A DNA stretch of 44,986 nt, taken from positions 1 to 44,986 of the IMG/VR virus record IMGVR_UViG_3300044667_000249, one strand, 5' to 3'. The position numbers and the translations under genes are program-made. Origin of the DNA: a virus (taxonomy: Duplodnaviria; Caudoviricetes). The notes under the pieces were generated by a model. It searched no databases, was not told the DNA's origin, and saw nothing but the letters and a program-made list of their open reading frames with translations. Positions 14,220-39,593 of this stretch are shown in pieces (the first letter of the stretch is position 1; each line of letters begins with the position of its first letter).

Positions 14220-14642
14220 TCAGCGTGTCCGGACGGATGAAGGGGGCGTGCGCGGCCTCGCCGCGCTCCAGCGCCACCAGTGCTGCGATCTGTGGTCGAG
14301 CTCGAATCCGAGGCTCTCCAGCCACGCCTGCGCTCCGGGCTCGGCGGGCGAGACCTCGGCGTGGATGTAGCGGATGCCGGCGGAGCGCATGGCCTCCAGG
14401 AAGCGGATGGCGGAGCGCATGATGGTCATCTTGTGGGGCCGCGCCTCGTCGGCGACATCGATGAAGGCGAACCAGTTGCCCCGCCGGAAGGCGATGCCGC
14501 CGATGCCGACGATCACCCCGTCCTTCTCGCCGACCCAGGCCGATGCCGTCGGCACGCCGCCTTCGGGAGCGCCCAGGCGGACGGCGAGGGCGGCGATGTC
14601 CTCCGCCGTCGCCGGACGGATGACGATGGGGCTACCGCTCAT
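14220..14642 (-). CDS. GNAT-fold protein (T7 gp13-like position)
   Basis: IRPATAEDI, VGEKDGVIVGIGG and AQAWLESLGF motifs; immediately downstream of tail tubular B. Confidence 0.75.
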   Translation of the reverse strand: MSGSPIVIRPATAEDIAALAVRLGAPEGGVPTASAWVGEKDGVIVGIGGIAFRRGNWFAFIDVADEARPHKMTIMRSAIRFLEAMRSAGIRYIHAEVSPAEPGAQAWLESLGFELDHRSQHWWRWSAARPRTPPSSVRTR

Positions 14643-17600
14643 GGGTCACCACCGTGGGAATGGCCGCCAGCACGGTGGCCGGCCGCGGCGCCCGGGCCTC
14701 GATGACCAGACGCGTGTCTGGGTGCCACGTGGACGGCATCGGCACGGCAACCTTGTCCAGGGTGTCGAAGATGGCGTCGGCGTCCACCGCGGCGCCTGCG
14801 ATATTGCGCGGCAGAGGATCGAGCCGCCCCGTGTCGGAGCCGAACCGGATCGCCGCGTTGTGGGTGCGGTAGAGCGACAGCGCCAGCTGCGGGGCACGCT
14901 TCTGCTGCGCCAGGGCCGTCCCCATCTCGGCGGCGTAGGCGAGCTTGCTGCTCCTCCAGCGGGCGCGGTACGGCAGCCCCACCACCGCATGGTGCACGGA
15001 CTCGCCCAAGGTGATGTTGCCGGCGCCCGTATCCACCGTGTAGGTCGTCTGCACCCCGTCCACGTCGGGGGAGAGGTCCTTGCCCGCATCGGGCCAGTGC
15101 GGGTTGGCCGAGGCCGCGCCGGTGTCGTCGGCCCACACGATCACGTCCTCGCCGGCGAGATGGGAGAGCCCCGGAATGGTCGCCGTGCGCCCCGTGTCGG
15201 TGTAGGCGACCGCGCAGTCCGCCAGCCAGGAGAGCCCGGTGTCGCCCTGGCACTCCGCCTCCATCGCCCACTTCTCGAGGTAGCGCCTCGTGGTGCCGTT
15301 GATGGTGCGGCGGATGTGGTAGTAGACCGCGTCCTCCGAAAGGCCCGGGAGCACCATGGCCCGCTCCACCCACCCCGTGCGGCTCTCGGGGTCCGGGTTG
15401 CCGGTCACCCAGGTGAACCAGCAGATCACCTCCTCGTTGGGCTCGTAGGTGAGGATGGCCACCGTCCCGTCGCCCAGCACGCAGTGCAACCGGGTGTCTG
15501 GCTGGCGCTGGACGGCGACCGAGCGCACCCCAGCCTTCAGGAGGTCCGGCACCAGCAGGGTGAGGTCGAACACCTCGTAGTCGGCGATGGTGTTCTGGGC
15601 CGGGCCCACCACGTAGACCCTGACCCCAGAGCGCTGCACCATCAGCGCGCGGGTGTCCATCTTGAGCGCGCGGATGTTGGCCGAGCCCTGGGTGGAGACG
15701 GCCGCCACCGAGGAGTTGGAGGGTGTCAGCGGCTCATCGAGCGAGGAGGCGCGCGCGGTCAGCTCCGCCCCGGAGGTGCCGATGAGGAGCCGCAGGAGCG
15801 AGACCAGATAGCGGATGCGGTCGACCGGGCCCGACCCCAGGGTGCGGATGATGGGCCCGGCATCGCCCTCCACGTCCTCGTTGAAGGATTCGTAGTCGTC
15901 GGAGACGGACAGGAACAGGCTCCCGCCCTGGGCATGGCCGAGGCGGCCGCCATGCAGGGCGACGGCCGTGGGGTGCCCTCGCGCATCCGACCAGTAGCCC
16001 TCCTGCCAGTTGTCGGAGAACCCCGTGTCGGAGAAGCGCGACAGCGTCTCGGCTTCCACGCTCATGTTGGAGTTGTAGCCCGTGATGCGGGCGATGCCGG
16101 TCTTGCCGCCGCCGGCGTAGCGGATATGCACGGCTGCGGTGCCGGACGCCCACGACACGACACGTGCGCGATACCAGACCCGCAGATTGTCGTCGGGATC
16201 GTCGATGGTGGCCGTGAAGGTGCCGGTGTCGATGGCGTCCGTAACGAGGCCGGTGTCGTTTCCAGAGAAGAAGGACCTGTTGGGCACCGGCTTGAAGCCG
16301 GTGGCCTCACCGTCGATGGACCGCTCGATGGCGACCGAGCCGGAGTAGGTCCCGGACACCTCGAAGACGATGCGGCGCTCTGCATTGTTTTCCGGCGTGC
16401 CGGTATCGGAGATGCCCGTCACCTGCACCGGATCGGTGACCGCATCCGCCTGGCCCAGGCGCCCGAACCAGCGCTGCCCGGTGTGAAAGATGCGAAAGAG
16501 GGCGCCCACGTGGGTCGGCCGGAAGAACGGGATGTCGGAGGTGATGGTGATGTTGCCGCCCGCGATGGATGAGGGGCGGAGCTTGGCGGACGAGGACGGC
16601 GCCGGCAGGAACGGCCCGTCGTTGGGCTCGTAGTTGACGACCGACCAGGAGCGACCCGTCCCGCGCCGCTCGACCTTGGATGAGCGCACGCCGTCGCAGT
16701 CGATGTACACCACGTCGGCCGACTGGTCGTAGCGGATATTGTCGAGATCGTCGTGTGCCCACGGGGCGGTCAGCACAACAGGGCCGGAGTCGCCGATGGA
16801 GAGCGATGAGACGATCCTGTCGACAATCGCATCCGACTGGAACGTGATCCAGAAGTTGCCTTCCGGCGTGAAGGCGAGGCTGTGGTGGCCCGTCCCCAGC
16901 ACGCTCTCGCGGATATAGTCGTCATCGCCGGCCGTCGACCCGACGCGGAGGGCAACGGGCCCGCGGCCAATGTTGATGACAAGCGAGTGCTCCGTCCCTG
17001 TATCGGAGACGATGACGCGCTTGCGCGCGACCGCTCGCGAGCCGATGGCGGACGCATTGAGGATCCGCGCGCCCCCCTGAAGCCTGACCTGCTGGGCAAC
17101 GGTCGCATCGAACAGCTCGATCTCGGGCAGGAAGACCTCGCCGCTTGCATCGCCGCCACCCGTGATCGCCGTGATGTAGAGACGCCAATGCCGCCGCGGC
17201 TCTACCGTGCCGGTATCGGCGTCCAGGCGCTCGAATGTGCGGCGCTCGCTGACGGCCCAGCCCACCTGGGCGCTGCGCTCGTCCGTCAGCGCCCACTTGC
17301 CGGTATCGATTGCATAGGTGCCGGTGTCGAAGTTGCTGGCGATCAGCCGCCACGCGGACGGAACGTTGTCGAGAGCATCGGCAAAGATCGGCGCCCGGAT
17401 CGAGTAGGACCTGACGGCCTTCCTGTTGCCGGTGTCCGCTCCGAAATCGACATTGATCCAGCTCGGAAGGTCGCCGCCCTTGGAGGCTCCGGTGTCGATC
17501 CACGCGGTCGTTGTGTTGTCATCGGCCGCCTGCCACGCCGCCCCGCCGAACCCGACGTTGCCCGGGTCCTGGGAGCTCGCCGTGATGGTGACGCCATTGG

Positions 17601-18024
17601 TCGTCGCCCCGGTCATGACAGGGATGAGATCCACGGCGGTGGTTGCGATTGCACCGCCAGTGCTCGCATTGCTCCACCCCGTGTCCGACAGAGAGACCAT
17701 CGTGTCGACTGGTGGCCGCGAGAGCAATTCCAGGGCGTGCGCGGCCTCCCCGAGCCGCACCCGCATCGCGCCGCTCGTCACCTCCAGCAGCGCCACGTCC
17801 TCGGTGGCGGCGACGAACTCGATGAACTCCGCCCCGGTGTCGTTGAGGGACGACCCGAAGTACTGCGTCCCCGGCCGGATCGACATCGGCCCCAGGGTCG
17901 AGGGCAGCCAGTTCTGGAGCATCTCGGCCGAGAGCCGGGTGCGGTCGAGGTCGACGCGCGCGAGGCCCCGGGGGGAGATGATTCCCCGGTTCCAGGACAG
18001 GAGCGGGACGTTCTGGCGGGCCAT
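14632..18024 (-). CDS. Tail tubular protein B (nozzle) with inserted discoidin/F5-8-type-C-like domain; 17 DTG motifs
   Basis: N-terminus SWNRGIISPRGLARVD...NW...GPMSIRPGTQY, plus IRYDQSADVVY, WQEGYWS...GHP and RRYLE motifs. I prefer the ATG at 18024 (purine-rich RBS) over 18084. Confidence 0.88.
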   Translation of the reverse strand: MARQNVPLLSWNRGIISPRGLARVDLDRTRLSAEMLQNWLPSTLGPMSIRPGTQYFGSSLNDTGAEFIEFVAATEDVALLEVTSGAMRVRLGEAAHALELLSRPPVDTMVSLSDTGWSNASTGGAIATTAVDLIPVMTGATTNGVTITASSQDPGNVGFGGAAWQAADDNTTTAWIDTGASKGGDLPSWINVDFGADTGNRKAVRSYSIRAPIFADALDNVPSAWRLIASNFDTGTYAIDTGKWALTDERSAQVGWAVSERRTFERLDADTGTVEPRRHWRLYITAITGGGDASGEVFLPEIELFDATVAQQVRLQGGARILNASAIGSRAVARKRVIVSDTGTEHSLVINIGRGPVALRVGSTAGDDDYIRESVLGTGHHSLAFTPEGNFWITFQSDAIVDRIVSSLSIGDSGPVVLTAPWAHDDLDNIRYDQSADVVYIDCDGVRSSKVERRGTGRSWSVVNYEPNDGPFLPAPSSSAKLRPSSIAGGNITITSDIPFFRPTHVGALFRIFHTGQRWFGRLGQADAVTDPVQVTGISDTGTPENNAERRIVFEVSGTYSGSVAIERSIDGEATGFKPVPNRSFFSGNDTGLVTDAIDTGTFTATIDDPDDNLRVWYRARVVSWASGTAAVHIRYAGGGKTGIARITGYNSNMSVEAETLSRFSDTGFSDNWQEGYWSDARGHPTAVALHGGRLGHAQGGSLFLSVSDDYESFNEDVEGDAGPIIRTLGSGPVDRIRYLVSLLRLLIGTSGAELTARASSLDEPLTPSNSSVAAVSTQGSANIRALKMDTRALMVQRSGVRVYVVGPAQNTIADYEVFDLTLLVPDLLKAGVRSVAVQRQPDTRLHCVLGDGTVAILTYEPNEEVICWFTWVTGNPDPESRTGWVERAMVLPGLSEDAVYYHIRRTINGTTRRYLEKWAMEAECQGDTGLSWLADCAVAYTDTGRTATIPGLSHLAGEDVIVWADDTGAASANPHWPDAGKDLSPDVDGVQTTYTVDTGAGNITLGESVHHAVVGLPYRARWRSSKLAYAAEMGTALAQQKRAPQLALSLYRTHNAAIRFGSDTGRLDPLPRNIAGAAVDADAIFDTLDKVAVPMPSTWHPDTRLVIEARAPRPATVLAAIPTVVTHER

Positions 18025-18144: not shown

Positions 18145-19215
18145 ATGTTGGCCAAGGCCGCCGGCGCCGCGCCGGCCAATGCGTTATTCCTGTGCGCGGA
18201 TCGCGCTATGTTCCCAGCCGCGGTGTTCGCCGCACACACCGCCCGCACATACGCTGGCGCCAATTCCTTCGCGATCTTCATGGCTGTCCCGGAGAATGCC
18301 GTCGAGCCTGCGTGGATCGATTGGGCCGAGGCCAATGCAGGCGTGCACGTGAAGGAGGTCGCCGGGCTCGAGCGACGGCTCGGCATGACGCGGACGGGCC
18401 TTGTCGGCATGCCTCTCTCCACCTGCCTCCGCTTCCTGTTCGACCTGGTCGTTCCGTCTGCGTGCAAGCGTTTGCTCTACCTCGACGCCGACGTGCGCGT
18501 GAGCGGCGACCTCTCGCGTCTCTTCGACCTCGACCTTGGCACCCACCTCCTTGCTGCCTGTCACGACGGACCGGTGATGACCATGGGGCGAGATGGGGAC
18601 ACCTGGTACGGGCGCTATATGTCCGAGGCCGGGCACGACCCGGATATCCCCTACTTCAACGCGGGCGTCATGCTGATCGACGCCGTCCGCTGGCAGCACG
18701 AAGGGGTGAGCGACAAGGTCCTCGCCAACATGCGCGACAACCTCGACCGCTACCGCCTCGCCGATCAGAGCGCGCTCAACGCCACGTTCCGCGGCGCCTT
18801 CCAGCCACTCTCTCCGGTCTGGAACTTCATGACCCAACTGTCACCAGGCGGGGAGCTGTCAGGCCTTGTCGAGCCGCGCATCATCCACTTTGCTGGCACC
18901 GAGAAGCCGTGGAAGGTCACCACCTGGAGCCAAGACGACACGGAGCCCGCGCACTACCGCACCTTCTTCCGGCAAACGCCGTGGCGGCACTTCTGCTCGC
19001 CCTGGTCTCAGTCGCCGACCTGGAAGCAGCTGCGGCGCTTCGCGAAGCGCCGCTTCAGGGAGCGCGTCCTGGGCACCCCGCCGCGACCTCGCTGGCTGCC
19101 CGGCTGCCGCGAGCCGATGCTGGCCCGCTACAGGGCGCACATTGGCACATTCGACTTCGCCGACGTGCGGCAGGGGCTGGCGCTGCGCGATGGTGGCGTG
19201 CTGCGCGCGGTCTAG
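18145..19215 (+). CDS. Glycosyltransferase family 8
   Basis: LLYLDAD (DxD), YFNAGVMLID, DQSALN, WNF and IIHFAGTEKPW motifs; GGGAGG RBS. Its stop overlaps the tail tubular A stop (CTAG at 19212-19215). Confidence 0.92.
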   Translation: MLAKAAGAAPANALFLCADRAMFPAAVFAAHTARTYAGANSFAIFMAVPENAVEPAWIDWAEANAGVHVKEVAGLERRLGMTRTGLVGMPLSTCLRFLFDLVVPSACKRLLYLDADVRVSGDLSRLFDLDLGTHLLAACHDGPVMTMGRDGDTWYGRYMSEAGHDPDIPYFNAGVMLIDAVRWQHEGVSDKVLANMRDNLDRYRLADQSALNATFRGAFQPLSPVWNFMTQLSPGGELSGLVEPRIIHFAGTEKPWKVTTWSQDDTEPAHYRTFFRQTPWRHFCSPWSQSPTWKQLRRFAKRRFRERVLGTPPRPRWLPGCREPMLARYRAHIGTFDFADVRQGLALRDGGVLRAV

Positions 19216-19856
19216 CCGATCAGGCTTCCCCGGCTCCCCCTATCCCGCCACCCCCGGGCCCCCTGCCACCTGGCCTGCGTCCACCCCGACGGCGGGGGAA
19301 ACTTGGGCTGGGCATCGTCCATGGCGTCCTGGTTCTTGGCGAGCCGCTTGGCCTTCTCCATGGCCTCCTCCACGTCCTTCTTGAGCGACCGGTTCTGGGT
19401 GAGCTTCATGCACACCCGGGAGGCCAGCTCCAGGGACACGTACCGGGTGAAGAGCGGCGTCCACCGGTCCATGTTCAAGCCCAGCCCCGTATCGTTGGAG
19501 GCATAGCGCACATAGATCGGCGAGTTGTCAGCCGACCAGAACCCCTGGTCGTCGTAGTAGCGGGTGAGGGGATAGGAGAAATACTCGTCCTCCGAGATGG
19601 CCACCGTGCGCACCCAGTCGGTGGGCTTGGCGAACACCTTAGGGTAGCCGAAGGCCGGGACGGTGCCGGTGTCCGCCTCGAGCTTCACCGTCTCGACGAT
19701 GAAGTTCCACGACGCGGCCGAGAGGCACTCCTCCACCACCTGGTCGTGCACGCGCGCCAGCGTGCGCCCGGCCTCCACCCCCTCCCCCGTGTCGGAGAGC
19801 GGGTCGACGCCGAGCTCGTCGACGAGGGCCATGTTCCAGAGGGTGAGCTTGTCCAT
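19212..19856 (-). CDS. Tail tubular protein A (adaptor); 3 DTG motifs
   Basis: LWNMAL...LG, SWNF, PAFGY...KPTDWVR, IYVRY, PLF...LELA and AKNQDAMD pattern; located between the head genes and tubular B. Confidence 0.85.
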   Translation of the reverse strand: MDKLTLWNMALVDELGVDPLSDTGEGVEAGRTLARVHDQVVEECLSAASWNFIVETVKLEADTGTVPAFGYPKVFAKPTDWVRTVAISEDEYFSYPLTRYYDDQGFWSADNSPIYVRYASNDTGLGLNMDRWTPLFTRYVSLELASRVCMKLTQNRSLKKDVEEAMEKAKRLAKNQDAMDDAQPKFPPPSGWTQARWQGARGWRDRGSRGSLIG

Positions 19857-20993: not shown

Positions 20994-21260
20994 TCAGGCC
21001 GTATCGCTCACCGACGCGAACTGCACACCGGTGTCCTGCGCCTGCAGGGCATCGACGACGAAGCGCGCGGCATCGCCACCGTTGGCGTTGGTGAAGTAGA
21101 GAAGATCGCCGACCTTCATCCCCTTGGTCTTGCCGTCGGTGAAGAAGCCCGTCGCCACCGGCAGGTCGGTACGCACCGACCCGGTGTCCGAGTAGAACCA
21201 GATGCGCGGGCCGGCGATGGCCTGCGGCTGGAGGTTCAGCTTTTCCGTCTTGTAGGCCAT
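20994..21260 (-). CDS. Small capsid-associated (decoration-like) protein; 2 DTG motifs
   Basis: 88 aa, strong AAGGAG RBS, directly after the major capsid gene; GFFTDG..KGMKVGDL core. Function inferred from position. Confidence 0.75.
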   Translation of the reverse strand: MAYKTEKLNLQPQAIAGPRIWFYSDTGSVRTDLPVATGFFTDGKTKGMKVGDLLYFTNANGGDAARFVVDALQAQDTGVQFASVSDTA

Positions 21261-21359: not shown

Positions 21360-22193
21360 TCAGATGTTGGAGGCGTCGTGCCGGAACTGGACGATGCCGG
21401 CCTGCTGGAGGATCTGCGCTCCCGTGAACGACGAGGCACGGCAGTAGGAGTAGTCCTGCTCGTCGTTGTAGCCGACGGCCGTGTTGAGGCCCTCGCCCGA
21501 GTCGAACGCCGAGCCGATGGAATCGCGGTGGAAGAAGTAGCACTTCTCATCCGCGGTCCCCACGCCCGACAGGTTGGGGTGGAAGATCCAGTTGAAGCCC
21601 ATCCAGCGCATGGTGCGGCGGATCGGCCCCGTCAGGTACTTCATGTCGACGTAGTCGATCTTGGTGGCCTCGGGGATCATCGAGATGTACCCCTCGACCG
21701 CCGGCGTCGCGACGGCGAACATGTTCTCGATCTCCTGGGTGGGGACCTCGTTCTCACCCAGGGTCACCTTCGCCTTGGCCACCACCGACTGGGAGAACGT
21801 CGTCGGTGCACCGAGGTTGGCGGTCGCCGTATCGAGCTTGGTGATGACATCCGCGTCGATGCGGCGGTTCAGCACCTTGCGCGTGGTCGACTGCATCAGC
21901 GCGCGCTGGTCGCCCTGCGACGCGAAGATGTTGAAGCGGGTCTTGCGGGCAAGGTCATGCCACTCCGTGAGCGTCGCGACAGGCTGGCTCAGCGAGTCGT
22001 TGCGCGCCGGGATGAGACCGTTGAGGCCGCGGGTGGTGGCCTGCGCCCCGCCCGAGCCGCCCACCAGGAACGTCGCCTGGTTGCCCTTGATCACGGCCTC
22101 GGTGACCGTGGTCTGCCGCAGCCAGCTCATGCCCTCCTCGAAGGAGGCGACGAGCTGCTGCCGGAACTGCGTTTGGAATGCACTCTCTGCCAT
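21360..22193 (-). CDS. Major capsid protein
   Basis: AFQTQFRQQLVASFE...LRQT, NRRIDADVI and RWMGFNWIFHP motifs; AGGAG RBS; follows the scaffold gene. Confidence 0.9.
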   Translation of the reverse strand: MAESAFQTQFRQQLVASFEEGMSWLRQTTVTEAVIKGNQATFLVGGSGGAQATTRGLNGLIPARNDSLSQPVATLTEWHDLARKTRFNIFASQGDQRALMQSTTRKVLNRRIDADVITKLDTATANLGAPTTFSQSVVAKAKVTLGENEVPTQEIENMFAVATPAVEGYISMIPEATKIDYVDMKYLTGPIRRTMRWMGFNWIFHPNLSGVGTADEKCYFFHRDSIGSAFDSGEGLNTAVGYNDEQDYSYCRASSFTGAQILQQAGIVQFRHDASNI

Positions 22194-28474: not shown

Positions 28475-28478
28475 GGGA

Positions 28479-28982: not shown

Positions 28983-29634
28983 TGAGCTGGGCTCGCGCCT
29001 TGTCCACTGGTCCGCTGGTGTCCACTTCAAGGACCTCTACTCCCCTCTCCCGCAGCACCTCGACGGCCACCTCGATCGCCGGCTGCATCAGCCCCACCAT
29101 GTGGGCCCGATCCTCGTGCGCGGTGGCGGCCACAGTGCGGCGGACGTGATTGCGCTGCTCCACGATCTCCTGGGGGCACCGGGTCACCGCCACGCCCAGA
29201 GAGACGGGCATGAGGCGGAAGTAGTGCTTAATCTCCGCGAGGTCCTTGCCCATGTGGTTGAGGCGCCAGCCGAAGCCCAACCCGCGCTGGACGAGGCCGG
29301 TCTGGATGTAGGGCTTGGCGGGGTCACATGCGACCGTTTCCTTGGACACCGGCCCGCATGACTCCCACCCCCGAATAACGGTTGCAGGAACCACGCTCGG
29401 CATCCGCGCCACCGTCGCCATCTTCCGCACCGAGCGGTTCACCATCCGCAACGCGGCAGGGTAGGTGGGGTGCGGCTTGATGAGGTGGAAGAGGCGGGTG
29501 ATCTCGTTGAGGAAGTCGTGCCAAGCGGCAGGCGGCAGGCGGTCCTCGATCGGAAGAGCGTGCGGCCCCCAGAGAGGGTCACACAGCGTGGATTTGCCGG
29601 AGCCTGGGGGGCCGGCTACGTCGAGCCAGTTCAT
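28855..29634 (-). CDS. P-loop kinase-like protein
   Basis: N-terminal GPPGSGKST and a lid-like CPQEIVEQRN..R segment. Confidence 0.75.
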   Translation of the reverse strand: MNWLDVAGPPGSGKSTLCDPLWGPHALPIEDRLPPAAWHDFLNEITRLFHLIKPHPTYPAALRMVNRSVRKMATVARMPSVVPATVIRGWESCGPVSKETVACDPAKPYIQTGLVQRGLGFGWRLNHMGKDLAEIKHYFRLMPVSLGVAVTRCPQEIVEQRNHVRRTVAATAHEDRAHMVGLMQPAIEVAVEVLRERGVEVLEVDTSGPVDKARAQLIEFAAKQHQSLPRDYRYKVAGHTQTMGPCDQDPVLSPPPWWQ

Positions 29635-30265: not shown

Positions 30266-30798
30266 CCCAGCGTCACATCCAGCTGCTTGTCCTTGGGCAG
30301 CCCCATCGCCCCATCCGCCCAGATGATGGCCGCAAGGTCCCCCTCCTCACCCCGCATGTCGGCGATGTAGTCCGACACCTGCTCCGCCGTCACCCGGTCC
30401 CCCTTCTTGTTCCGGGCGTACCCCTCCTTGTCGATGTAGAAGGGGTGAGGGATGACGACGGGCTTGGGGGCGTCCGGCACGGGGTCGACTGCTCCGTTCA
30501 ATGCCGCGCCGTTGCGCATGAACTTGCCGGGCGGGGCGGTCTGCAGCGGGTTGGGCGCCAGCATCTGGCCGGGCAGCGCGGGTGCGGCCCCATGCCCCTG
30601 GTGCGTGTCATGGCACTTGCACGCCAGCCGCTCCGCCGCATTCCCCCCGTACACGGTGCCGAAGGCCATGGCCATCATGTTGAGCCAGGCCAATTGCCTA
30701 TCCACGTCCCAGGCCTTGTCGGCCGGGGGGAGCTTGGCGATCATGGCCGCGAACAAGGGATCAGCCAGGGCAGAGGCGGATTTCTTGGGGCGGGGCAT
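30262..30798 (-). CDS. Hypothetical protein (178 aa)
   Basis: Translationally coupled on both sides; MIAKLPP...W...WL.M..MAF..VYG core. Confidence 0.7.
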   Translation of the reverse strand: MPRPKKSASALADPLFAAMIAKLPPADKAWDVDRQLAWLNMMAMAFGTVYGGNAAERLACKCHDTHQGHGAAPALPGQMLAPNPLQTAPPGKFMRNGAALNGAVDPVPDAPKPVVIPHPFYIDKEGYARNKKGDRVTAEQVSDYIADMRGEEGDLAAIIWADGAMGLPKDKQLDVTLG

Positions 30799-31517
30799 CA
30801 GACCGGCCTCAATTCGATGATCCGATAGTCCTCATCCGCCACCGCCCCCTTCGGGGTATCCTTGCCCCCCGGCACATCCCGGTGGATCGCCCACCCATCG
30901 AGCGCCCCCGTGATCACGTCATAGGGGCAGGCCACCGGGTGGTTCGCCACCCGCGCCGTGAGCACGATACGCTGCCTTGCGACCCGCTGCATCTCCTTCA
31001 GCATCGCCTGCACGCCCTCGGCCCCGTGCTCCCCCATGAGCCAGCGGGTGATGCGCACGTTGACGGCCACGTCCACGCTCTTGTCGTAGAGCGAGGTGCC
31101 CCGGACATCGCCCTGGGCGAACATCCACTGGGCCACGTCCCCCACCATGGCGTTGGGGTCAGCGACCTTCTGGGCCGCCAGCGTGATCATGTCGGCGGAG
31201 GCATCGAGCCCGCGCACGACGAAGCCCTTGGCCGCGTAGAAGTCGAAGAACCGACCCGTCCCGCACGGGGCATCCAGCACCCACATGCCCAATGGGAGGT
31301 CGGCGAGGAAGGACTCGACGGCCGCCTGCTCCACTCTCCACTTGGCGCTGCCGGAGCGCTTGGCGTCGTAGCCCTTGGCCACGTCACCCACGTACTTGTG
31401 GGGGCCGCCGGCGGCTGGCTGGGTCTCGGGCTGCCGGCCCTGCTGTGCCGCGCGGATGCGCTCCTGCGCCTTGGCGAGGTCGACCGGAGGCAGGTAGGAG
31501 ATGAGGGGGCGGTTCAC
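30798..31517 (-). CDS. Class I SAM-dependent methyltransferase
   Basis: VLDAPCGTGRF, GLDASADMI, QGDV and LKEMQRVAR motifs; GTG start at 31517 overlaps the upstream stop. Confidence 0.88.
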   Translation of the reverse strand: MNRPLISYLPPVDLAKAQERIRAAQQGRQPETQPAAGGPHKYVGDVAKGYDAKRSGSAKWRVEQAAVESFLADLPLGMWVLDAPCGTGRFFDFYAAKGFVVRGLDASADMITLAAQKVADPNAMVGDVAQWMFAQGDVRGTSLYDKSVDVAVNVRITRWLMGEHGAEGVQAMLKEMQRVARQRIVLTARVANHPVACPYDVITGALDGWAIHRDVPGGKDTPKGAVADEDYRIIELRPV

Positions 31518-32011: not shown

Positions 32012-32245
32012 TCAGGCCTTCTTCGTCGCGCACCAGGGGCAGCGGTGCACGGGCGGCTGGCCGATCCCAAAGTACGCCTTGGCGCCCTCCTGATCGGCCG
32101 GCAGATAGTGCACGAGCGCCGAGTGACCCTCGTTGTCCGTGCCCCACTCGTGCGCCTTCGCCCACGCCTCACAGCAGGGCTGCTTGACGGGGCGTCCGGT
32201 CCCTTCCGGCGCCTGGGGCGCCTCCGGCTTGGTTTCGTCGCTCAC
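32012..32245 (-). CDS. Small Cys-rich (CC...CPWC) protein
   Basis: 77 aa, ATGA-coupled, possible zinc-binding motif. Confidence 0.65.
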   Translation of the reverse strand: MSDETKPEAPQAPEGTGRPVKQPCCEAWAKAHEWGTDNEGHSALVHYLPADQEGAKAYFGIGQPPVHRCPWCATKKA

Positions 32246-32952
32246 CAGTAGTGCTCCTTGATCCAGGGATGCAGCGCCTGCGTCTCAGCCTGTGACGGCT
32301 CACGCGCCCCAGGGAAGCTCACGATGCAGGCGTTGTCGGGAAGCTCCGACCCGACGCCCTTCCCGCCCAGCCGCCCGGCGCCATAGACGCCGTCCCGCTC
32401 CGCGGTGAAGTGCGCCTCGTTCCACTCCAGCCGCTCGGAGAGCCAGGCCTGCTCCCGCCCGCCAAAGCGCCAGTTCATCCACTTGGGCGTCTCGGCGGGA
32501 TCGAAGTCTGCCCAGAGACCGGGCCGTGCGCCGGCTGAGAAGAGCTGCACCGACGACTGATAGAACGCCCGCTGGGGGGCGGGCCAGTTGGGATTGCGCC
32601 ATAGCACGATGTCCTCTGCCCGGGACACCAGCGCATCGAGGCTGCCCGTGATCACCACGTCGAGGTCGAGGGAGAGCACGCGCTCCCCGAGGTTCTGCCG
32701 GCACCAGTCCGGATTGTGCTGCATCAGGCGGATGCAGACCGTTCCGGGCACATGCTTGCGCCAGTCGAGCGGAACCGTCTCAATGTCCTCTATGGCCTCG
32801 TCGGCGACGCAGACGAAGCGATGGGGGACAGAGAGGTTGCGGCGGACCATGTTGCGGAGCACCCGCACATGGTCATGGTTGAAGGTGTAGCCGCGGCGCT
32901 GGCTGTCGCGGGCGGGATCGCGCCAGAGGTAGGTGGCGACGCACAAGGTCAT
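32242..32952 (-). CDS. GT-A-fold glycosyltransferase-like protein (paralog 1)
   Basis: TYLW...LRNMVRRNLSVPHRFVCVAD, VLSLDLDVVITG (DxD), YQSSV, EQAWLS and IVSFPG motifs; ATG at 32952. Confidence 0.82.
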   Translation of the reverse strand: MTLCVATYLWRDPARDSQRRGYTFNHDHVRVLRNMVRRNLSVPHRFVCVADEAIEDIETVPLDWRKHVPGTVCIRLMQHNPDWCRQNLGERVLSLDLDVVITGSLDALVSRAEDIVLWRNPNWPAPQRAFYQSSVQLFSAGARPGLWADFDPAETPKWMNWRFGGREQAWLSERLEWNEAHFTAERDGVYGAGRLGGKGVGSELPDNACIVSFPGAREPSQAETQALHPWIKEHYW

Positions 32953-33155: not shown

Positions 33156-33469
33156 GCGGGCGCCGCCCAGTGCTCGAACCCGCCCTGCCGCGCTTCCTCC
33201 TGCAGGGCGACCAACTCGGCTGCAGTAACGTCCTGCAGCCACAGCTCCAGGTAGGTCCACTTCACCACCGTTAACGGTCCTACGATGATACGGCCGTCCG
33301 CCGTCTGCGGCGTGCACCAGTAGCAATCGTGGGCCGGCACGTAGCCGGCGCGCCAGTTGGCCTTGTTCGCCACCAGCTTGCCGTAGAACTCCTCGCCCAT
33401 CTCCCGGACGTAGAGGGAGAGGCGGGCCTCGGCGAGGTCGCGGAGCTTGTCTCTGGCCTCCTCGATCAC
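33152..33469 (-). CDS. Hypothetical protein (105 aa)
   Basis: GTGA/ATGA coupling with neighbours. Confidence 0.65.
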   Translation of the reverse strand: MIEEARDKLRDLAEARLSLYVREMGEEFYGKLVANKANWRAGYVPAHDCYWCTPQTADGRIIVGPLTVVKWTYLELWLQDVTAAELVALQEEARQGGFEHWAAPA

Positions 33470-34572
33470 GCCGCCGCCCTTTCCGACTGATTCGCGCCTG
33501 CGCGAATCATATCCACCGTCCGTCGTGCGGCATCAACCGCACAGGACAGCTTTCCACCGAAGATGCGGATCACCTGCTCGTCGATCTGCTCCACCATGGT
33601 GGGCCTGGCGTCGTCGTGGTCCCGGTCGGGCAGCACCGCCCGCACCGTGAACATGGACCCCACGTGCTCCGCCTCGGCGAGCGCCGGGATGAACCGCCGC
33701 CCGTCGTCCGCCATCACCCCGAAGCGGGAGTGCTCGGCGCACTCTGCCGCTGCGATCAAGCCCCGGTTGAGCCATGGGGCGAGGTGCGGCGGCACCCTCG
33801 GGCTGAGCCCGACGTTGCGCCAGTGGATGGCGTGCTCCACATGCCCCATGACATGCAGGCCGTCCGCTGTCCGCCCCCACGGGTCGATGCAGCAGAAGGG
33901 GCCGTCCATGATGACGACGCCCAGGCCCCGCAGGCGCTCGGGCAACCGCAGGATCGGCTTCTCCACCACCTCGAACTGGAGCGGCACGGTCGGCGCGCCC
34001 AGCTCGGCCGCCACCTCGTTGGTGGAGGCGTAGGCGGCAATGACGATGCGGTCGTATTCGGCCCTGAGGTCGGCCGTGGCCGCCTCGTAACGCACCTCAA
34101 CCCGTGCCTGCTCCAGGCGGTTGACCACGATGGCGCGCAGCCGGGCGAGATCGATGCGGTCCTCCGCAACGTTGAGCACACAATCGACTGCAGCCGGATC
34201 CACCAGCCAGCTCGTCTGCACCCCCATCAGGGCACGCCCGCGCAGGCCCGCCAGACGGCAGAAGGCCCCGTACCCGGCGGGTGTGACACGGCTACCCTCA
34301 CGTGCGATGGCGTAATACTGCCGCCCGGCATGGCCGATGACGGCCCGCCCGTACTCGGCCACGAACGAGCGCGCGCCGGCCTGCGCCTGCCGGGCCGTCT
34401 CGAGGGAGCGCGGGTAGTGGTAGCCCTCGTGCAGGCGGCCCTGGTTGATGCCGGACGCCGCTTGCATGAGGACGCCGGCGCGCTCGTAGAGCACCACGTC
34501 ATGGCGCTCGCGGGCGAGGTGGATGGCGGCGGTGCAGCCGAACAGGCCGCCGCCCACAACGGCGATGCGCAC
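33466..34572 (-). CDS. FAD-dependent oxidoreductase (DAO-like)
   Basis: RIAVVGGGLFG dinucleotide-binding motif, ASGINQGRLHEGYHYPRS, IMDGPF and GGK motifs. Confidence 0.88.
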   Translation of the reverse strand: MRIAVVGGGLFGCTAAIHLARERHDVVLYERAGVLMQAASGINQGRLHEGYHYPRSLETARQAQAGARSFVAEYGRAVIGHAGRQYYAIAREGSRVTPAGYGAFCRLAGLRGRALMGVQTSWLVDPAAVDCVLNVAEDRIDLARLRAIVVNRLEQARVEVRYEAATADLRAEYDRIVIAAYASTNEVAAELGAPTVPLQFEVVEKPILRLPERLRGLGVVIMDGPFCCIDPWGRTADGLHVMGHVEHAIHWRNVGLSPRVPPHLAPWLNRGLIAAAECAEHSRFGVMADDGRRFIPALAEAEHVGSMFTVRAVLPDRDHDDARPTMVEQIDEQVIRIFGGKLSCAVDAARRTVDMIRAGANQSERAAA

Positions 34573-34579
34573 AACCAGC

Positions 34580-35293
34580 CTACCTTCTGAACTCGGTTAT
34601 CCACGGATTGTGTGCCATCACCTCAGGCACCCACGGCTTGCGCTCGCTGGCGAAGGCCACGAGACGGGCATTGGCTGGCAAGTCTCCGTAGAACCCGACC
34701 CATGGGCGTCGCGGATGCGCAACGCGATAGATGCCGTGGCTCTCATCCCAGTAGGGGTTGTCCTTGCCGGCGTAGTCCGAAATCAGCCACTGGTCGTCCC
34801 TGGCGTGCGCAGGATCGAAGCTCTGCCAGATCACGCACATGGTCCCGGGGCTGTGCAGCATGACGGCCCCGTTGAACCAGGACAGCTTCTTGGCGTAGCC
34901 GACCTCAGGATAGGTCAGGAGCCATTTGCGCGGGTTGCGCCACAGGACGAGGCTCTCGTCGCGATCGACAATCGGCGTCAGGTCGCCGACGATCACGGTG
35001 TCCAGATCGAGCTGCAGGACGCGGTCACCCAGCACATCCCGCGCCCGTGGGTTGAAGGTGAACAGGCGCACGAAGCAAGTGCCCGGGACGTGCGTGGTCC
35101 AGTCGATAGGCACCGCCCGGATGGCGCTGTCGTCGGCGAACGCCTCCGGCCGGTCCGTCACCACCACGAACTCGTGCGGCATCGACAGATGGCGGGCGAC
35201 CTGGCGCTGGAGCAGGCGGGCATCGTCGGCCCGGTAGGCCGGGAACTTGCTGTTCTCGTCCGGCGCCCACAGGTAGGTCACGACCGACAGCAT
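34580..35293 (-). CDS. GT-A-fold glycosyltransferase-like protein (paralog 2)
   Basis: TYLW...LQRQVARHLSMPHEFVVVTD, VLQLDLDTVIVG (DxD), FNGAVM, DDQWLIS and KPW motifs; ATG at 35293. Confidence 0.85.
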   Translation of the reverse strand: MLSVVTYLWAPDENSKFPAYRADDARLLQRQVARHLSMPHEFVVVTDRPEAFADDSAIRAVPIDWTTHVPGTCFVRLFTFNPRARDVLGDRVLQLDLDTVIVGDLTPIVDRDESLVLWRNPRKWLLTYPEVGYAKKLSWFNGAVMLHSPGTMCVIWQSFDPAHARDDQWLISDYAGKDNPYWDESHGIYRVAHPRRPWVGFYGDLPANARLVAFASERKPWVPEVMAHNPWITEFRR

Positions 35294-35300
35294 CGGGCGC

Positions 35301-36005
35301 TCACCAGTTCGCCGCCGGCCGCTCGGCCAGCCTGGACTCCGGCGCCACCAGCACCTCGATGCCCCTGCGGCGCGCCTCCCACAGGAAATACTGTGTCCCC
35401 GGCCGCTGGTAGGCGTACTCGTTGTCGGACGACTGCAGGATGCCCCACAGCCCGATGGCCCCGATGCTCCTCGCCTCGCAGTCCACGATGGCCTTGGCCA
35501 GCATGTAGGCGATGGAGGAGGTGAACATCCACGGGCAGAACAGCCCATCGCCGACGGGCATGGGGATGGCCACGTCCTGGTAGACGCCCTCGGCCACCTT
35601 CTGCGTACCCCGCATGAGCGCGTCGGTGCCGTACATCTGCTGCTCGGGATAGGGACGGGCGCCGGGGAACAGGCCCGAGGCAAGCGCCCTCTGGTCGCGC
35701 ATCCACACCTTCGGCAGCTTGGCCACGTACTGCAGGTAGCCGTAGGGCCGGGAGTGGTGCTCGAGCGGGGCGTGGACCTCGAACCAGTCGTCCACGCGGG
35801 GAAGCTCGCGGGCCTCCTTGCTGGAGCCGAACGGGGTGTTGTCCGGGGAGCAGGCCCAGATCTCCCAGGCCGGATCGGCGAAGGGCGCCTCCATGGCGGT
35901 CGCGGGGTGCGAGCCGACGATGGCGATGCCCTTGATGGCGGCCTTGGGTGAGGACGCCGCGCTGGAGGCGCCGGCAGGGGTCACGTCGATGAGGTCGTCG
36001 AGCAT
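35301..36005 (-). CDS. Sialyltransferase/Maf-like (GT29/GT42/DUF115-type fold) putative glycosyltransferase
   Basis: IAIVGS...WEIWA, WFEVH and TSSIAYMLAKAI...IGLWGI...EYAYQR pattern; ATG at 36005. The fold call is from motif memory only. Confidence 0.6.
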   Translation of the reverse strand: MLDDLIDVTPAGASSAASSPKAAIKGIAIVGSHPATAMEAPFADPAWEIWACSPDNTPFGSSKEARELPRVDDWFEVHAPLEHHSRPYGYLQYVAKLPKVWMRDQRALASGLFPGARPYPEQQMYGTDALMRGTQKVAEGVYQDVAIPMPVGDGLFCPWMFTSSIAYMLAKAIVDCEARSIGAIGLWGILQSSDNEYAYQRPGTQYFLWEARRRGIEVLVAPESRLAERPAANW

Positions 36006-36102: not shown

Positions 36103-36930
36103 CTATTCGCCCGTGTCTCGCAGCGCGGAGACGTTGATCCAGTCGAGGTCGATGTTGTTGGCGCCGGCCTCCGAGGCGAAGGCGGAGAGCACAGGTACCA
36201 TCCCGCGGGTGGCGAGCACGGGGGACTGGATGCGGCCGATGGAGGCGCCGTTCTGGTAGAACGTCGCGACATTGCCGGCATCGTTGAGCGCCACCTCCAG
36301 CACGTCGTAGGTGTTGGCGACCGGGGCCGTGCCGGAGACGGGCGTCGCGTCCACGTCGGTGTTCACCGCCACCCCGCGCCAGACCTGGTTGGCCGGCGCC
36401 AGGGCCGCACCGCCGCCGAACAGCAGGCCCACCGCGTTGGAGGCCGGGGAGAGGATGCCGCCGCCGGTGTCGTAGACCGCCATCTGCCGCGCGCCGGTGT
36501 CGGCGAATCCGATGAACACGTTGGCGCCGGTGAGGCTGTCGATCTTGAGGCGGGCGGCGAGCCTCAGCTGGCCCTGGTTGGCCTTCCACTGCGGGAACAG
36601 GCCCGTGTTGAGCACCGCCGCACCGGCCGGCGTCTTGGCCGAGGTGGCCGACAGGGCCATGCGGAAGACGCCGTTGGTGAAGGGACGTACGCTGCCGCCC
36701 GCGCCGGTATCCGCCCCGGTGAAGGACCAGCGGTCGTCGAGGACATCGCCGAGGAACTCGTCCCAATCGGCAACATAGGCCGGCGAGCCCGGCAGGATGA
36801 TGTTGCCGCCCTGGCGGCCGACGGAGCGCTCGCCGCCGGCGGCGATGGCCGCGCGGCCGACGAGGATGTCCCGCGCCGTGAGGTAGGCGCGCTGGCCGTG
36901 CAGGGAGACCTGCTTCATGAAGTGAGACAT
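36103..36930 (-). CDS. Putative virion surface protein with beta-sandwich (ConA-like) domain; 4 DTG motifs
   Basis: 275 aa, AAAGGA RBS; DEFLG...W, ATFYQNG and IDLDWI strand pattern. Confidence 0.7.
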   Translation of the reverse strand: MSHFMKQVSLHGQRAYLTARDILVGRAAIAAGGERSVGRQGGNIILPGSPAYVADWDEFLGDVLDDRWSFTGADTGAGGSVRPFTNGVFRMALSATSAKTPAGAAVLNTGLFPQWKANQGQLRLAARLKIDSLTGANVFIGFADTGARQMAVYDTGGGILSPASNAVGLLFGGGAALAPANQVWRGVAVNTDVDATPVSGTAPVANTYDVLEVALNDAGNVATFYQNGASIGRIQSPVLATRGMVPVLSAFASEAGANNIDLDWINVSALRDTGE

Positions 36931-37028
36931 GGGGTGTCCTTTCCGATCCTCGGCTTGTTGGTGTGTGCTGGTGAGGAACGCTGTGGGCTACTGACAGTCG
37001 GGCCCCAAGCGGGGCCGACACGGGCCAT

Positions 37029-37253
37029 TCAGAGCGTGACGCGCTTCGTCACGTTGGCGGTGGGCACGCCTGAGATGCGCGGGGTGGCGATCACCTCGGG
37101 CTTCTCGCCTGTCGGCGGCGTGGGCGGCGTGTCAAAAAACCACGTCGTGCCCCACGCACCACCCCATGTCCCGCCCCAGGTATCGGTGCCGACCGATCCG
37201 GCCGACCCACCGGAGGCGCTTTGCGTGGTGACACGCTTGGTGACCGTGGTCAT
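37029..37253 (-). CDS. Small Thr/Gly-rich protein with WGxxWG repeats
   Basis: ATG at 37253 in a TGATG overlap; 74 aa; TWGGTWGGAWGTTW; VTKRVT at both ends. Confidence 0.7.
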   Translation of the reverse strand: MTTVTKRVTTQSASGGSAGSVGTDTWGGTWGGAWGTTWFFDTPPTPPTGEKPEVIATPRISGVPTANVTKRVTL

Positions 37254-38254
37254 CAGGTGCCCGGGTTCCAGCGGTTGTTGCCGCCGGTGTCGCCGGCCCC
37301 GATCACACGCACGTTGTTGACCTTGCGGATGTCGACCATGGCCCAGTTGCCGGTGTCGAACTGCAGCCGGCCCGTGCGCTCCTCGATCGCCGCCAGGCGC
37401 TCGTTCAGGCCGGTGTCGGAGATGGCTGTGAGCGTGCGCGAAGGCGAGGCCCAGATGCCCGTGTCGAAGGCGAAGGAGGTGAGCGTGCGGGCGCCCGCGG
37501 CCCAGACCGCGGCTGCATTCTCGGCCGCGCTCGGGTCGTTGAAGCCCGTGATGCCCGTGCCCTTGGCCAGGGCGATGTTGGTGCCGGCGGTCAAGGTGCG
37601 GCTGGCCGAGGCCCAGATGCCGGTATCGAACTGGAAGCCCGTGAGCGTGCGCGAGGCGTCCGCCACCCATACGGCACGGTTGATCTGCCCGGTGTCGAGC
37701 GCCACCGTGGCGGCAACCCCGAGACGCCCGCCGTCGAGATGGGCAGCCCCCGTGTCGCCCAGCACGGCCCTGAGGTCCACGTGCTGGCGGTAGGTGGGCA
37801 CCGTGGCGAAGGCCTGCTGCAGCTGGTTGGCTGCACCCGTGTCGCCGACGAGCCGGCGCACGTCGACCTGCGGGAAGCCGATCTCGAACTGCCCCGCCCA
37901 GAACCTAACCGTCTTGCCGTCGATGGTGACGGCGTCCACGGCCACCTGATACCAGGAGCCGGACTGATAGAAGCCGGTATCGTCGGAGGTGTTGAAGACC
38001 TGGATGGAAAAGCGGTTGAGCCCGACGCGGTCGCCCATCTGCCCGGTGTCGGAGATGAGGGAGTAGCCCGAGTCCGTCGCCCGGGCCGTCGGCTGTCCGT
38101 CGCGGAAGACCTCGATGTCCGTCACGGCAAAGCCGGACACGGCCTCGCTGTCGCCGCTGTCGTTGAACGCAGCGAACGGGAAGAACAGCGTATCGCCCGG
38201 ATTGGCCGCGGTGAGCCCGCCGGGGTTGCGCTTGCCGAGGTAGGGGACGGACAT
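37253..38254 (-). CDS. Putative fibre/appendage protein with W...RTLT repeats; 10 DTG and 2 DSG motifs
   Basis: 333 aa; duplicated AVW....RTLT.F.FDTGIWAS.SRTLT unit; TAATG-coupled to the upstream gene. Confidence 0.75.
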   Translation of the reverse strand: MSVPYLGKRNPGGLTAANPGDTLFFPFAAFNDSGDSEAVSGFAVTDIEVFRDGQPTARATDSGYSLISDTGQMGDRVGLNRFSIQVFNTSDDTGFYQSGSWYQVAVDAVTIDGKTVRFWAGQFEIGFPQVDVRRLVGDTGAANQLQQAFATVPTYRQHVDLRAVLGDTGAAHLDGGRLGVAATVALDTGQINRAVWVADASRTLTGFQFDTGIWASASRTLTAGTNIALAKGTGITGFNDPSAAENAAAVWAAGARTLTSFAFDTGIWASPSRTLTAISDTGLNERLAAIEERTGRLQFDTGNWAMVDIRKVNNVRVIGAGDTGGNNRWNPGT

Positions 38255-39174
38255 TACGCGGCAAGCCTCCGGTCAGGCGGGAGGATCAGGGCGGGGCGGC
38301 GCGCTGGAGTGAGGAGACCGCTGCGGTGCGCCGTCCAGCCGGCCATGGAGCGGCAAGAGCCGCGCACCAGCGACGGCCGGCGCAGATGCCGTCCCTCGAG
38401 CAGCCCGGCGCCAACCATGCGCCCGCCGCCCACCGGTGCCGGGGCGAACGCGGCGGCCAGATAGGTGCTCACGTCACCCGCCTCGGTATCGTTGAGCGCC
38501 CGGAGGTAGACGACCGCCTCATAGACCCGCCCCGCGAAGAAGCTGCCGGCCGCCGCGCGCAGCAAGGCGCCAAGCGCGAAGCGGTTGAACGTCGGCGTTC
38601 CCGACCGCACATAGTCCGGCGATCCGATGGCGGACTGCTCGGCCCCGTCGATCCACAGCGTCAGCGTGGTGCCGGTATCGACCACCCCCACAACATGGTC
38701 CGCGTTGTTGAACACCGCGGTCGTGGACAGATCGCCTGCCACGGTGGTGGCGGTGTGGAACATCACGGTGGCGCCGCGCACGAAGGCCGCCGCGCGGTTG
38801 CTTGTCGCCTGCCCCGACTGCAGCGGAGAATAGATCGGGCCGTTGTCTGCGCTGTTCCCCGCTGCGATGAGGCGGCGATCCGTGTTGGGATTGCCGCGCA
38901 CGGCAACGAACGCGGAGGTGGCGCCGGCCGCGAACATGCCAAGGTCGGCGTTGCGGAAGAAGTAGTCGTCGGTCCCGTCGAGGTTGACGTAGGGGATGCC
39001 GCTGTTGGCCTGGTACGTTGGGCCGTTGCCGACGGTGAGATGAAACGCATTGCCGCTCAGGTCATTCCAGCCGGTCGGCGTGCCGCCGTCGGCAGGAGAA
39101 CCCAACGAGGCGTGGTCGCGCGCCCGCACCCACAGGGCCAGGTTGGACAGGTCGGTCGGATCGTTGATGGGCAT
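38254..39174 (-). CDS. LamG/ConA-like lectin-fold putative fibre or receptor-binding protein; 1 DTG motif
   Basis: LALWVRA...WNDLSGN..H, LDGTDDY, LWIDG and FAGRVYEAVVY.RAL patterns. Confidence 0.75.
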   Translation of the reverse strand: MPINDPTDLSNLALWVRARDHASLGSPADGGTPTGWNDLSGNAFHLTVGNGPTYQANSGIPYVNLDGTDDYFFRNADLGMFAAGATSAFVAVRGNPNTDRRLIAAGNSADNGPIYSPLQSGQATSNRAAAFVRGATVMFHTATTVAGDLSTTAVFNNADHVVGVVDTGTTLTLWIDGAEQSAIGSPDYVRSGTPTFNRFALGALLRAAAGSFFAGRVYEAVVYLRALNDTEAGDVSTYLAAAFAPAPVGGGRMVGAGLLEGRHLRRPSLVRGSCRSMAGWTAHRSGLLTPARRPALILPPDRRLAA

Positions 39175-39206
39175 CGCGCGTCACCCCCGTCACGGGACAA
39201 AGGCCG

Positions 39207-39593
39207 TCAGCACCCCCGCACCCACACGTACAGCCGCCCCTGCAGCGCACCCCCGGAGGGCGTCACCCGGAGGCGCAACGCCTCCCGGTTGGCCACGAAC
39301 GGCTCCGGGCTGACGGGCGTGCCGGTATCCCCGTTGAGGTCGACGTTGCCACCCACGTCGTGCGTGGGCTGGCGCGGAGCCTTCAGCCAGCCGGGAGCCA
39401 GCAACCCGCAAGCCAGCACCGGGAAGGCCGGGCCGGTGTCGATGGCATCCACCATCAGGTCCAGCGCGATGGCCCCGCCCGTGTCGCCCCCCGTGTGGTG
39501 CCAGCGCACCTGGGCGATCTCCCCGTCCACGGGGGCGCTGCGCAGCTCGAAGGTGCCGGTATCGGTGACGACCGGGAAGACGTGGCGCTGCAT
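39207..39593 (-). CDS. Small putative structural protein; 4 DTG motifs
   Basis: 128 aa, AAGGA RBS, beta-strand pattern. Confidence 0.7.
   Translation of the reverse strand: MQRHVFPVVTDTGTFELRSAPVDGEIAQVRWHHTGGDTGGAIALDLMVDAIDTGPAFPVLACGLLAPGWLKAPRQPTHDVGGNVDLNGDTGTPVSPEPFVANREALRLRVTPSGGALQGRLYVWVRGC

Follow-up and report, generated by a model that had tools for sequence, protein, structure and literature searches.

Freeman et al. reportedly described, in 2023, the glycosylation of virions in mycobacteriophages (Che8, Rita and cluster O). According to the available parts of three publications (PMC11256854, PMC11600133, PMC12619734), the glycans are located on capsid and tail tube, at C-termini, and mycobacteriophages are the only phages for which virion glycosylation was found in the literature covered, those parts giving no sequon. 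The present work concerns a 45-kb podophage fragment, the virus record IMGVR_UViG_3300044667_000249 (source runs labelled soil metagenome), whose 44,986 nucleotides were analysed as a whole and are hereafter called the window. Several of its proteins, in particular those of the tail, repeat the tripeptide Asp-Thr-Gly (DTG), which is probably a sequon for O-glycosylation by a cassette of genes encoded nearby. As in mycobacteriophages, phage-encoded glycosyltransferases are clustered with a methyltransferase. Unlike in mycobacteriophages, the capsid is untagged, a single tripeptide occurs at up to 35 internal sites per protein and is purged elsewhere, and the host group, the morphology and the enzyme folds are different.

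The enzyme to which the analysis points, a 234-amino-acid (aa) protein, shares its predicted fold and the invariant Ser of a T-S-S motif with the flagellin glycosyltransferase Maf (DUF115/MptE-like GT-A fold, structure 5mu5) and with CstI/CstII. Maf moves N-acetylneuraminic acid (Neu5Ac) and 3-deoxy-manno-octulosonic acid (Kdo) directly onto Ser/Thr, as stated in the accessible part of a preprint (bioRxiv 2020.06.03.131540). Action on Ser/Thr would be common to both systems, and genes for pseudaminic- or neuraminic-acid (Pse/Neu) synthesis are linked in sister phages. Unlike Maf and CstII, the protein is a stand-alone domain in which Met or Leu followed by Gln replaces the G-x-D acid; moreover, neither flagellin nor a donor pathway is present in the DTG-bearing clade, and Mafs have no known sequon. 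In the O-glycosylation of Bacteroidota (sequon D(S/T)x, extended in Tannerella to D(S/T)(A/I/L/V/M/T/S/C/G/F) in the available part of PMC8550257), an Asp also precedes the acceptor Thr/Ser, and Gly is allowed in third position in Tannerella. Here, in contrast, the third position is strictly Gly, and the host of the clade appears to be alphaproteobacterial, whereas the Bacteroidota system is encoded by its host and needs export.

Comparable gene sets also occur as head-tail glycan cassettes in siphoviruses (L387-L395 and G045 among the records analysed; Tetraselmis viridis virus S20, NC_020840). Inside the virion module, all have an ortholog of the GT8-like gene (glycosyltransferase family 8) found in the window, joined in the metagenomic records by those for the methyltransferase, kinase and 100-aa protein; a sialyltransferase-type gene is present as well. 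However, theirs is a different MptE/Maf-like gene that keeps G-x-D, and neither DTG nor any other tripeptide dominates. The DTG system would work in the manner of mycobacteriophage and Maf flagellin glycosylation, while lacking defining features of both, and of the Bacteroidota system.

Concentration of DTG in tail proteins

DTG is found 41 times in seven proteins of the window totalling 2,474 aa, for 1.6 expected from composition. The tail nozzle (tubular B, T7 gp12-like, 1130 aa; 14632..18024, minus strand; phrog_376, E 1e-122) carries 17 copies, and tail tubular A, or adaptor (19212..19856, minus; phrog_394, E 2.5e-33), carries three. Two are found in an 88-aa protein encoded directly after the major capsid gene (20994..21260, minus; phrog_18004), which is likely, from this position, what we call a decoration protein. 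Four lie in a 275-aa protein directly upstream of the 234-aa gene (36103..36930, minus), and ten in a 333-aa repeat protein without family match (37253..38254, minus), presumably fibre-like. A LamG-like virion structural protein (38254..39174, minus; PF13385, E 7.5e-8; phrog_8510) has a single DTG, which is not significant by itself (0.18 expected), and a 128-aa clade-specific protein (39207..39593, minus), the smallest natural candidate substrate, has four. The 88-, 275-, 333- and 128-aa proteins are likely outer proteins of the virion. On the other hand, DTG is absent from the 6,673 aa made up by the giant and internal proteins, the portal, terminase, scaffold and capsid (1.8 expected), and from the enzymes. 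These counts and absences agree exactly with those given in a sequence-only reading of the same DNA.

Among all tripeptides encoded by 38 modelled minus-strand genes, DTG ranks first (41 versus 4.1 expected, P 1e-26), in line with the enrichment that this reading had anticipated; the second-best, SDT (P 3e-6), is a by-product of DTG. Eleven codon combinations encode it, and the degenerate pattern GAYACNGG has 43 matches on the coding strand, 41 of them in frame and two off frame, versus four on the other strand. Because the matches are in frame and the codon spellings vary, selection acts on the peptide, as had been concluded earlier from the varied codons, and a DNA-level motif or site is ruled out.

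The sequence-only reading had also proposed that a glycan or other adduct coats the particle. A coat over the whole particle is contradicted, because the major capsid protein (21360..22193, minus; PF19821) carries no DTG, nor do the capsid proteins of the clade. Its one DSG, at residue 231, was considered as a variant tag and rejected, since it varies to Q, M, N and A within the clade.

The DTG clade and its relatives

The best 120 nozzle matches, the one from the window included, hold 7-20 DTG each, 1,764 in total versus 101 expected (in one search, family size reached 312 matches). In this set DTG is enriched 17x and DSG 2.1x, while DTA (0.3x), DTS (0.14x), DTL (0.17x), DTV (0.34x) and DTI (0.52x) are depleted, as are DTP, DVG, NTG and ETG. 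The analogy with the Bacteroidetes D-(S/T)-x sequon, on which the sequence-only reading had leaned, is weakened accordingly, since the depleted tripeptides include DTA, DTL, DTV and DTI. Across 74 viral loci, the DTG count is 9-22 in the 36 whose nozzle identity is at least 51%, and 0-1 in the 38 at 35-47%. Fifteen DTG-rich records (the window and 14 others) were compared with 16 sister records, two of them complete, and no sister among these carries DTG above chance.

The other tagged proteins behave in the same way: 39 DTG versus 1.1 expected in clade orthologs of tubular A, 39 versus 2.1 in those of the 88-aa protein (none in the 14 sister orthologs shown), 169 versus 6.1 in ten clade homologs of the 333-aa protein, and 49 versus 1.4 for the 128-aa protein in 11 clade records. 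For the 275-aa family, 106 of the 120 homologs among the matches listed have 4-10 DTG, distributed over 11 site bins with turnover, and the 14 distant ones have 0-1. For the LamG-like protein, tblastn against the 30 relative records gave no match.

Relatives in bacterial genomes (29 loci, 0-6 DTG) come mostly from Alphaproteobacteria, although one DTG-poor relative (L222) lies in a metagenome-assembled genome (MAG) labelled Flavobacteriaceae. GcrA is encoded in two complete clade genomes (G003, G007), as are an integrase and a repressor-type protein; from these genes and the alphaproteobacterial relatives, we infer that the clade probably consists of temperate alphaproteobacterial podophages. 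Searches for a cultured phage or a GTDB prophage of the DTG clade found none. In one record, L421, the portal and capsid group outside the clade, but the kinase and methyltransferase are clade-type, of the clade cassette subtype, and DTG is present in the three tail-side proteins, with only one of the three tubular A sites kept; it may be a mosaic or a basal phage. Independent DTG lineages were looked for by scanning viral contigs (9 of 64 parts) for a three-DTG codon pattern: none of the 121 loci obtained has a cassette-gene match, two match any window gene (one terL; one tubB, portal and terL), and most DTG-rich loci are single proteins. The literature searched contained no description of a DTG tag in phages, subscription papers, including Freeman 2023, lying outside the scope of the search and possibly bearing on novelty.

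DTG as an address: avoidance, exchange and position

In 11 families common to both groups of records, the clade has one DTG versus 12.4 expected, and the sisters 16 versus 11.2 (Fisher P 3e-5). Clade proteins outside the 85 DTG-rich ones hold 17 versus 54.4 expected (a figure slightly biased by the removal of DTG-rich families), which makes DTG the third most depleted of 4,624 tripeptides, versus rank 1,121 of 3,786 in sister proteins. Where D and G are kept, the middle residue is T in 1,529 cases, S in 69 and another residue in eight. Ser thus represents 69 of the 77 non-Thr residues at DTG sites, versus 636 of 1,964 at other Thr columns, a difference whose P value is overstated given that the aligned rows are related.

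The predicted model of the nozzle (predicted local distance difference test, pLDDT, 85; predicted template modelling score, pTM, 0.81) matches the Carin-1 tail 8ck1 (E 1e-36) and T7 gp12. It has insertions specific to the clade at 16288-17691 (minus; residues about 112-316 and 540-594), and F5/8 type C or LamG Pfam domains occur in some of the nozzle homologs. The Thr of DTG is in coil for 14 of 17 sites, versus 42 of 81 other Thr (P 0.03), as expected of sites in loops, and eight of the 17 DTG fall within clade-specific insertions (248 of the 1,130 residues). Taken together, the sequence comparisons suggest that DTG likely behaves as the address of an enzyme, and would represent an undescribed three-residue tag. 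A tag written dozens of times in tail proteins and purged elsewhere would mean that a virus is evolving its own post-translational address code, and such a code would be detectable from genomes alone.

The cassette genes and their spread

Which gene reads the tripeptide? The cassette, on the minus strand throughout, comprises, in order of coordinates, first a 100-aa gene (28479..28781) that we presume to look ParB-like, present by clustering in 12 of 15 DTG-rich records and in none of 16 sisters, and without Pfam or NCBIfam match, as are its relatives in L164 and L151. At higher coordinates lie a P-loop small-molecule kinase-like gene (28855..29634; 14 of 15 versus 0 of 16), whose Atlas neighbours at 0.96 are of AAA_33 type, one of them fused to an oligosaccharide flippase, and an S-adenosylmethionine (SAM) methyltransferase (30798..31517; PF13649, E 6e-10; 14 of 15 versus 0 of 16). 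Two GT-A glycosyltransferases with a DxD motif come next (32242..32952; phrog_1962, E 9e-11; and 34580..35293; phrog_1962, E 4e-10). The second is GT8-like (nearest named Atlas cluster PF01501 at 0.95), and the first, with its invariant DLD (D96/D98), is GT8-like by homology to it; DxD is invariant in both, but neither has a Pfam or PDB sequence match. Between them lies an oxidoreductase dependent on flavin adenine dinucleotide (FAD; 33466..34572; PF01266, E 6e-15; 10 of 15 versus 0 of 16), which has no match in the complete genomes G001, G003 and G008 and is therefore not clade-universal. Fusions of a GT8-like with an MptE-like domain occur in other viruses.

The kinase, methyltransferase, GT8-like and 234-aa genes are present in all 14 DTG-rich records that cover the region (the fifteenth, G011, ends before it), and none of the kinase, methyltransferase, GT8-like, oxidase and 100-aa genes was found in the 16 sisters. 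The expected co-occurrence of DTG with the cluster is to this extent borne out across relatives. However, it breaks down in siphoviruses: in 12 unrelated siphovirus records, too, GT8-like, methyltransferase, kinase and 100-aa genes are found, mostly between head-tail genes, without DTG enrichment (12 versus 20.6 expected, rank 91 of 1,147, so that DTG is not clearly avoided either). Because of these orthologs, the kinase, methyltransferase, GT8-like and 100-aa genes are unlikely, from sequence comparison, to be the readers of DTG. Such a glycan-building cassette lies in L387-L395, L405, L407 and L428, in G045 (complete) and in NC_020840.1 at 26950-32533. The cassettes of the 12 records adjoin sulfotransferase, weak capsule-type glycosyltransferase and MptE-like matches. 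Another sequon was sought in them and discarded, the best candidate, [DES]SP, having 46 occurrences versus about 39 expected, with no dominant tripeptide. The cultured S20 has a GT8-like ortholog (E 6e-34) and genes annotated as sialyltransferase and methyltransferase, with no DTG enrichment (3 DTG in 28 late proteins).

The gene content and position of the cassette support a virion-glycan role in two morphotypes. As regards a comparison with DNA hypermodification, it sits among virion genes in podo- and siphoviruses alike, and no hydroxymethyl-pyrimidine enzyme (thymidylate-synthase-like, TET/JBP) was found among 141 of 189 proteins scanned from two complete clade genomes.

A predicted Maf-fold protein

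The cassette gene at 35301..36005 (minus) encodes the 234-aa protein, an orphan with a predicted Maf/CstII sialyltransferase-type fold (model pLDDT 90). Each record has a single copy; together these copies make up one clade with a long stem, and in 13 of 14 records the gene lies immediately downstream of a DTG-rich one. Its model aligns to Maf 5mu5 over 173 residues (VIA Z 9.4, root-mean-square deviation 4.0), further matches being CstI (Z 9.0), MptE-type HPPK (8.4), SteA, TPK (7.8) and mammalian sialyltransferases, and Foldseek retrieves CstII (prob 1.00, E 1.5e-3). Pfam, NCBIfam and PDB searches gave neither a PF01973 match nor a sequence match to a solved member. The gene has no match in nine siphoviral records searched (one complete), several of which carry a different MptE-like gene; hhalign of the two families gives P 0.6%, and the siphoviral MptE-like profile reaches CstII in the PDB at E 0.13 at best. 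Ser163 of a T-S-[SG] motif is invariant in the 234-aa family, CstII having a TSGVY...GIDF motif, and the Ser and the acid would correspond to those of Maf/CstII by motif and spacing.

Distant homologs are also found in four DTG-poor podophages of the sister group, where nonulosonate or sugar pathways are encoded near the Maf-fold gene and the terminase: G021 (L191:2213-7617), G027 (L199:2794-18065), G034 (L217:11133-15824) and G024 (L196:2041-8110). The pathway genes comprise PseI/NeuB, PseB-like, PseF-like, WbuX, HisF and DegT, with NeuB in three of the four (G021, G027, G034), a PseI over cut-off together with PseB-like and WbuX genes in G021, and a PseF-like cytidylyltransferase in G027. 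They are candidates for a sialic-acid-like coat of the virion, and point to an unstudied class of phages encoding pseudaminic-acid pathways beside virion genes. In G021, a scan of 40 of the 51 proteins (the other 11 come mainly from core virion genes) revealed no further transferase, as would fit an enzyme acting directly on protein. A Ser-Thr motif was looked for in the sisters with distant Maf-fold genes and set aside as weak (G024, 21 versus 10.9; G027, 9 versus 10.2).

Further homologs follow Ser/Thr-rich genes, likely encoding decoration proteins, in siphoviruses and in Microcystis phage Mvi-Yong1342-1; the genes upstream are above the 75th percentile of S+T in 28 of 30 cases, many of which are near-duplicates. 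The distant Maf-fold homologs L045, L047, L051, L056 and PP496355.1 (34396-35584) come after small Ser/Thr-rich genes of the virion module in unrelated phages; most of them have long C-terminal extensions, and the cultured member of this set is annotated as a methyltransferase.

Proposed mechanism and alternatives

The idea that DTG is a modified sequon, put forward by the sequence-only reading, is strengthened by the selection on the peptide, the Thr in coil, the co-inheritance with the cassette, the avoidance, the Thr/Ser exchange and the predicted sugar-transferase folds; what does not stand is that the presence of the cassette alone predicts the tag. Whether the 234-aa Maf-fold enzyme, known from its model, is what primes the Thr of DTG is evenly poised, and the whole explanation (a sequon together with a Maf/CstII-fold priming enzyme), although the best available, may equally well prove right or wrong. 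The proteins would be expressed late, in the cytoplasm of an alphaproteobacterial host, where the 234-aa enzyme would put an acidic sugar activated by cytidine monophosphate (CMP) on the Thr of DTG. The donor, Kdo or a nonulosonate, would come from the host pool; the clade encodes no NeuB, and host Kdo is a possible donor for Maf. Extension and decoration of the glycan would then fall to the DxD GT8-like enzymes, methyltransferase, kinase and oxidase, resulting in about 100 glycans on the nozzle hexamer alone. The purging of DTG elsewhere would reflect a penalty paid whenever this enzyme met a DTG in the cytoplasm, and the glycans would likely serve to shield the tail apparatus, keep it soluble or tune surface interactions. 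The analysis points to one small enzyme (the 234-aa protein) and one 128-aa substrate. If true, this would provide glycoengineers with a three-residue tag for cytoplasmic O-glycosylation.

Several observations weigh against this explanation. Known Mafs have no sequon, at least in the available part of PMC11339370. The fold match is middling, Maf being tied with CstI and close to MptE and thiamine pyrophosphokinases, with no Foldseek E below 1e-3, and at three of the 17 DTG sites of the nozzle the Thr falls in a strand or helix. The occurrence of cassette genes in siphoviruses without DTG enrichment counts in the same sense, several of these records being fragments. NeuB is found in none of five complete DTG-rich records, and no CMP-nonulosonate pathway is linked. 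The distant homologs (28-33% identity) of the four DTG-poor sisters mean that a change of specificity must be assumed. Moreover, the co-inheritance of tag and cassette amounts to one event, since trees (the portal tree built with FastTree) put the DTG clade in one group, L421 being a partial exception, and the aligned clade sequences are related, not independent.

Finally, the enzyme of the DTG clade reads G-x-[MLIVQ]-Q in 81 of 81 rows, the G-x-D acid being missing, whereas 13 of 14 non-DTG relatives keep G-x-[DE], with the same Ser-to-acid spacing in relatives such as L045. Mafs require an Asp 23 residues after the conserved Ser, although the active GkMaf has Asn there, according to the accessible part of the preprint cited above (bioRxiv 2020.06.03.131540). 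The loss of the acid may reflect a new donor, substrate-assisted catalysis by the Asp of the tag, or, unfavourably to a priming role, lost activity. We tentatively entertain the possibility of a Maf-type transferase turned sequence-specific, which would have lost its own acid, use the Asp of the tag to transfer Kdo or a sialic-acid-like sugar onto the Thr, and descend from a wider, undescribed phage family coating virions with pseudaminic or legionaminic acid. If the substrate-assisted part of this is true, DTG would be the shortest portable tag for cytoplasmic O-glycosylation.

Alternatively, a GT8-like DxD enzyme (of the 32242-32952 type) could prime the Thr with a neutral sugar, the Maf/CstII-fold enzyme capping the glycan. 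DxD GT-A enzymes that glycosylate protein hydroxyls include glycogenin and the Notch xylosyltransferases; CstI and CstII, which act on glycans, tie with Maf, GT8-like/MptE-like fusions exist, and a GT8-like gene is shared by all 14 covering records but by no sister. This scenario is nevertheless doubtful, as the GT8-like genes vary in copy number and fall into three or more subfamilies, among which siphoviral orthologs without DTG enrichment are interspersed, that of S20 included. It appears unlikely that what the cassette attaches to DTG is something other than a sugar (a phosphate, a methyl, or a (pyro)phosphoryl adduct from an MptE/TPK-like fold), in spite of the universal kinase and methyltransferase of the covering records, the HPPK and TPK matches and the lost acid. 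Orthologs of this kinase and methyltransferase occur in DTG-unenriched siphoviruses beside sulfotransferase and weak capsule-type glycosyltransferase matches, look-alikes of the kinase are fused to flippases, and NeuB and a PseF-like cytidylyltransferase accompany relatives of the 234-aa protein.

If DTG were instead a motif for non-covalent docking, or a protease site, read by a clade-specific assembly or decoration factor, enrichment, avoidance and loop placement would equally result. Yet seventeen cuts would shred the nozzle, which is intact in its model, the clade-specific families showed no protease, and the Thr/Ser exchange favours hydroxyl chemistry, so that we regard this as quite improbable. 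The modification of DTG by a host enzyme, for example of Bacteroidota type, the cassette being incidental, is very improbable: other third residues are depleted, bacterial-genome relatives lack the tag, GcrA in two complete clade genomes and the mostly alphaproteobacterial relatives point elsewhere, and virion and tail proteins assemble in the cytoplasm. The Bacteroidota system, in contrast, needs export, as stated in the available part of PMC8550257, from which comes also the extended Tannerella motif that DTG and DSG do fit. The MAG label of L222 speaks in favour of such a host. Lastly, a structural Asx/ST turn or metal-binding loop is hardly tenable, despite the coil location and the fact that D-x-G turns are common, because a turn preference cannot explain DTG in several unrelated proteins at once, its site turnover and its avoidance elsewhere, and orthologous folds manage without it.

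Other genes of the window

The claim of phage-encoded glycosyltransferases, consistent with the sugar-transferase folds of the cassette, had overlooked a GT8 glycosyltransferase (18145..19215, plus strand; PF01501, 113.9 bits versus a cut-off of 24.3; DAD motif in the translation). This gene is inserted into the late operon in antisense orientation, between the genes for tubular A and B, and overlaps the tubular A stop; no promoter or terminator match was found around it, and tblastn gave no match in any of the 30 relative records, hence it is private to this phage. A weak NCBIfam match to a lipopolysaccharide (LPS) galactosyltransferase was obtained, and the gene may act in LPS conversion and not on the virion. 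No tRNA genes were found in the window. Two large DTG-free proteins are encoded on the minus strand, the giant protein (>3,173 aa, window 1-9519), which runs off the contig end, and a 1296-aa protein (9570-13460) with a phage tail lysozyme domain. A NusG-like transcription antiterminator (41458-42096, minus; phrog_6386), upstream of the small terminase, is likely a regulator of the late operon.

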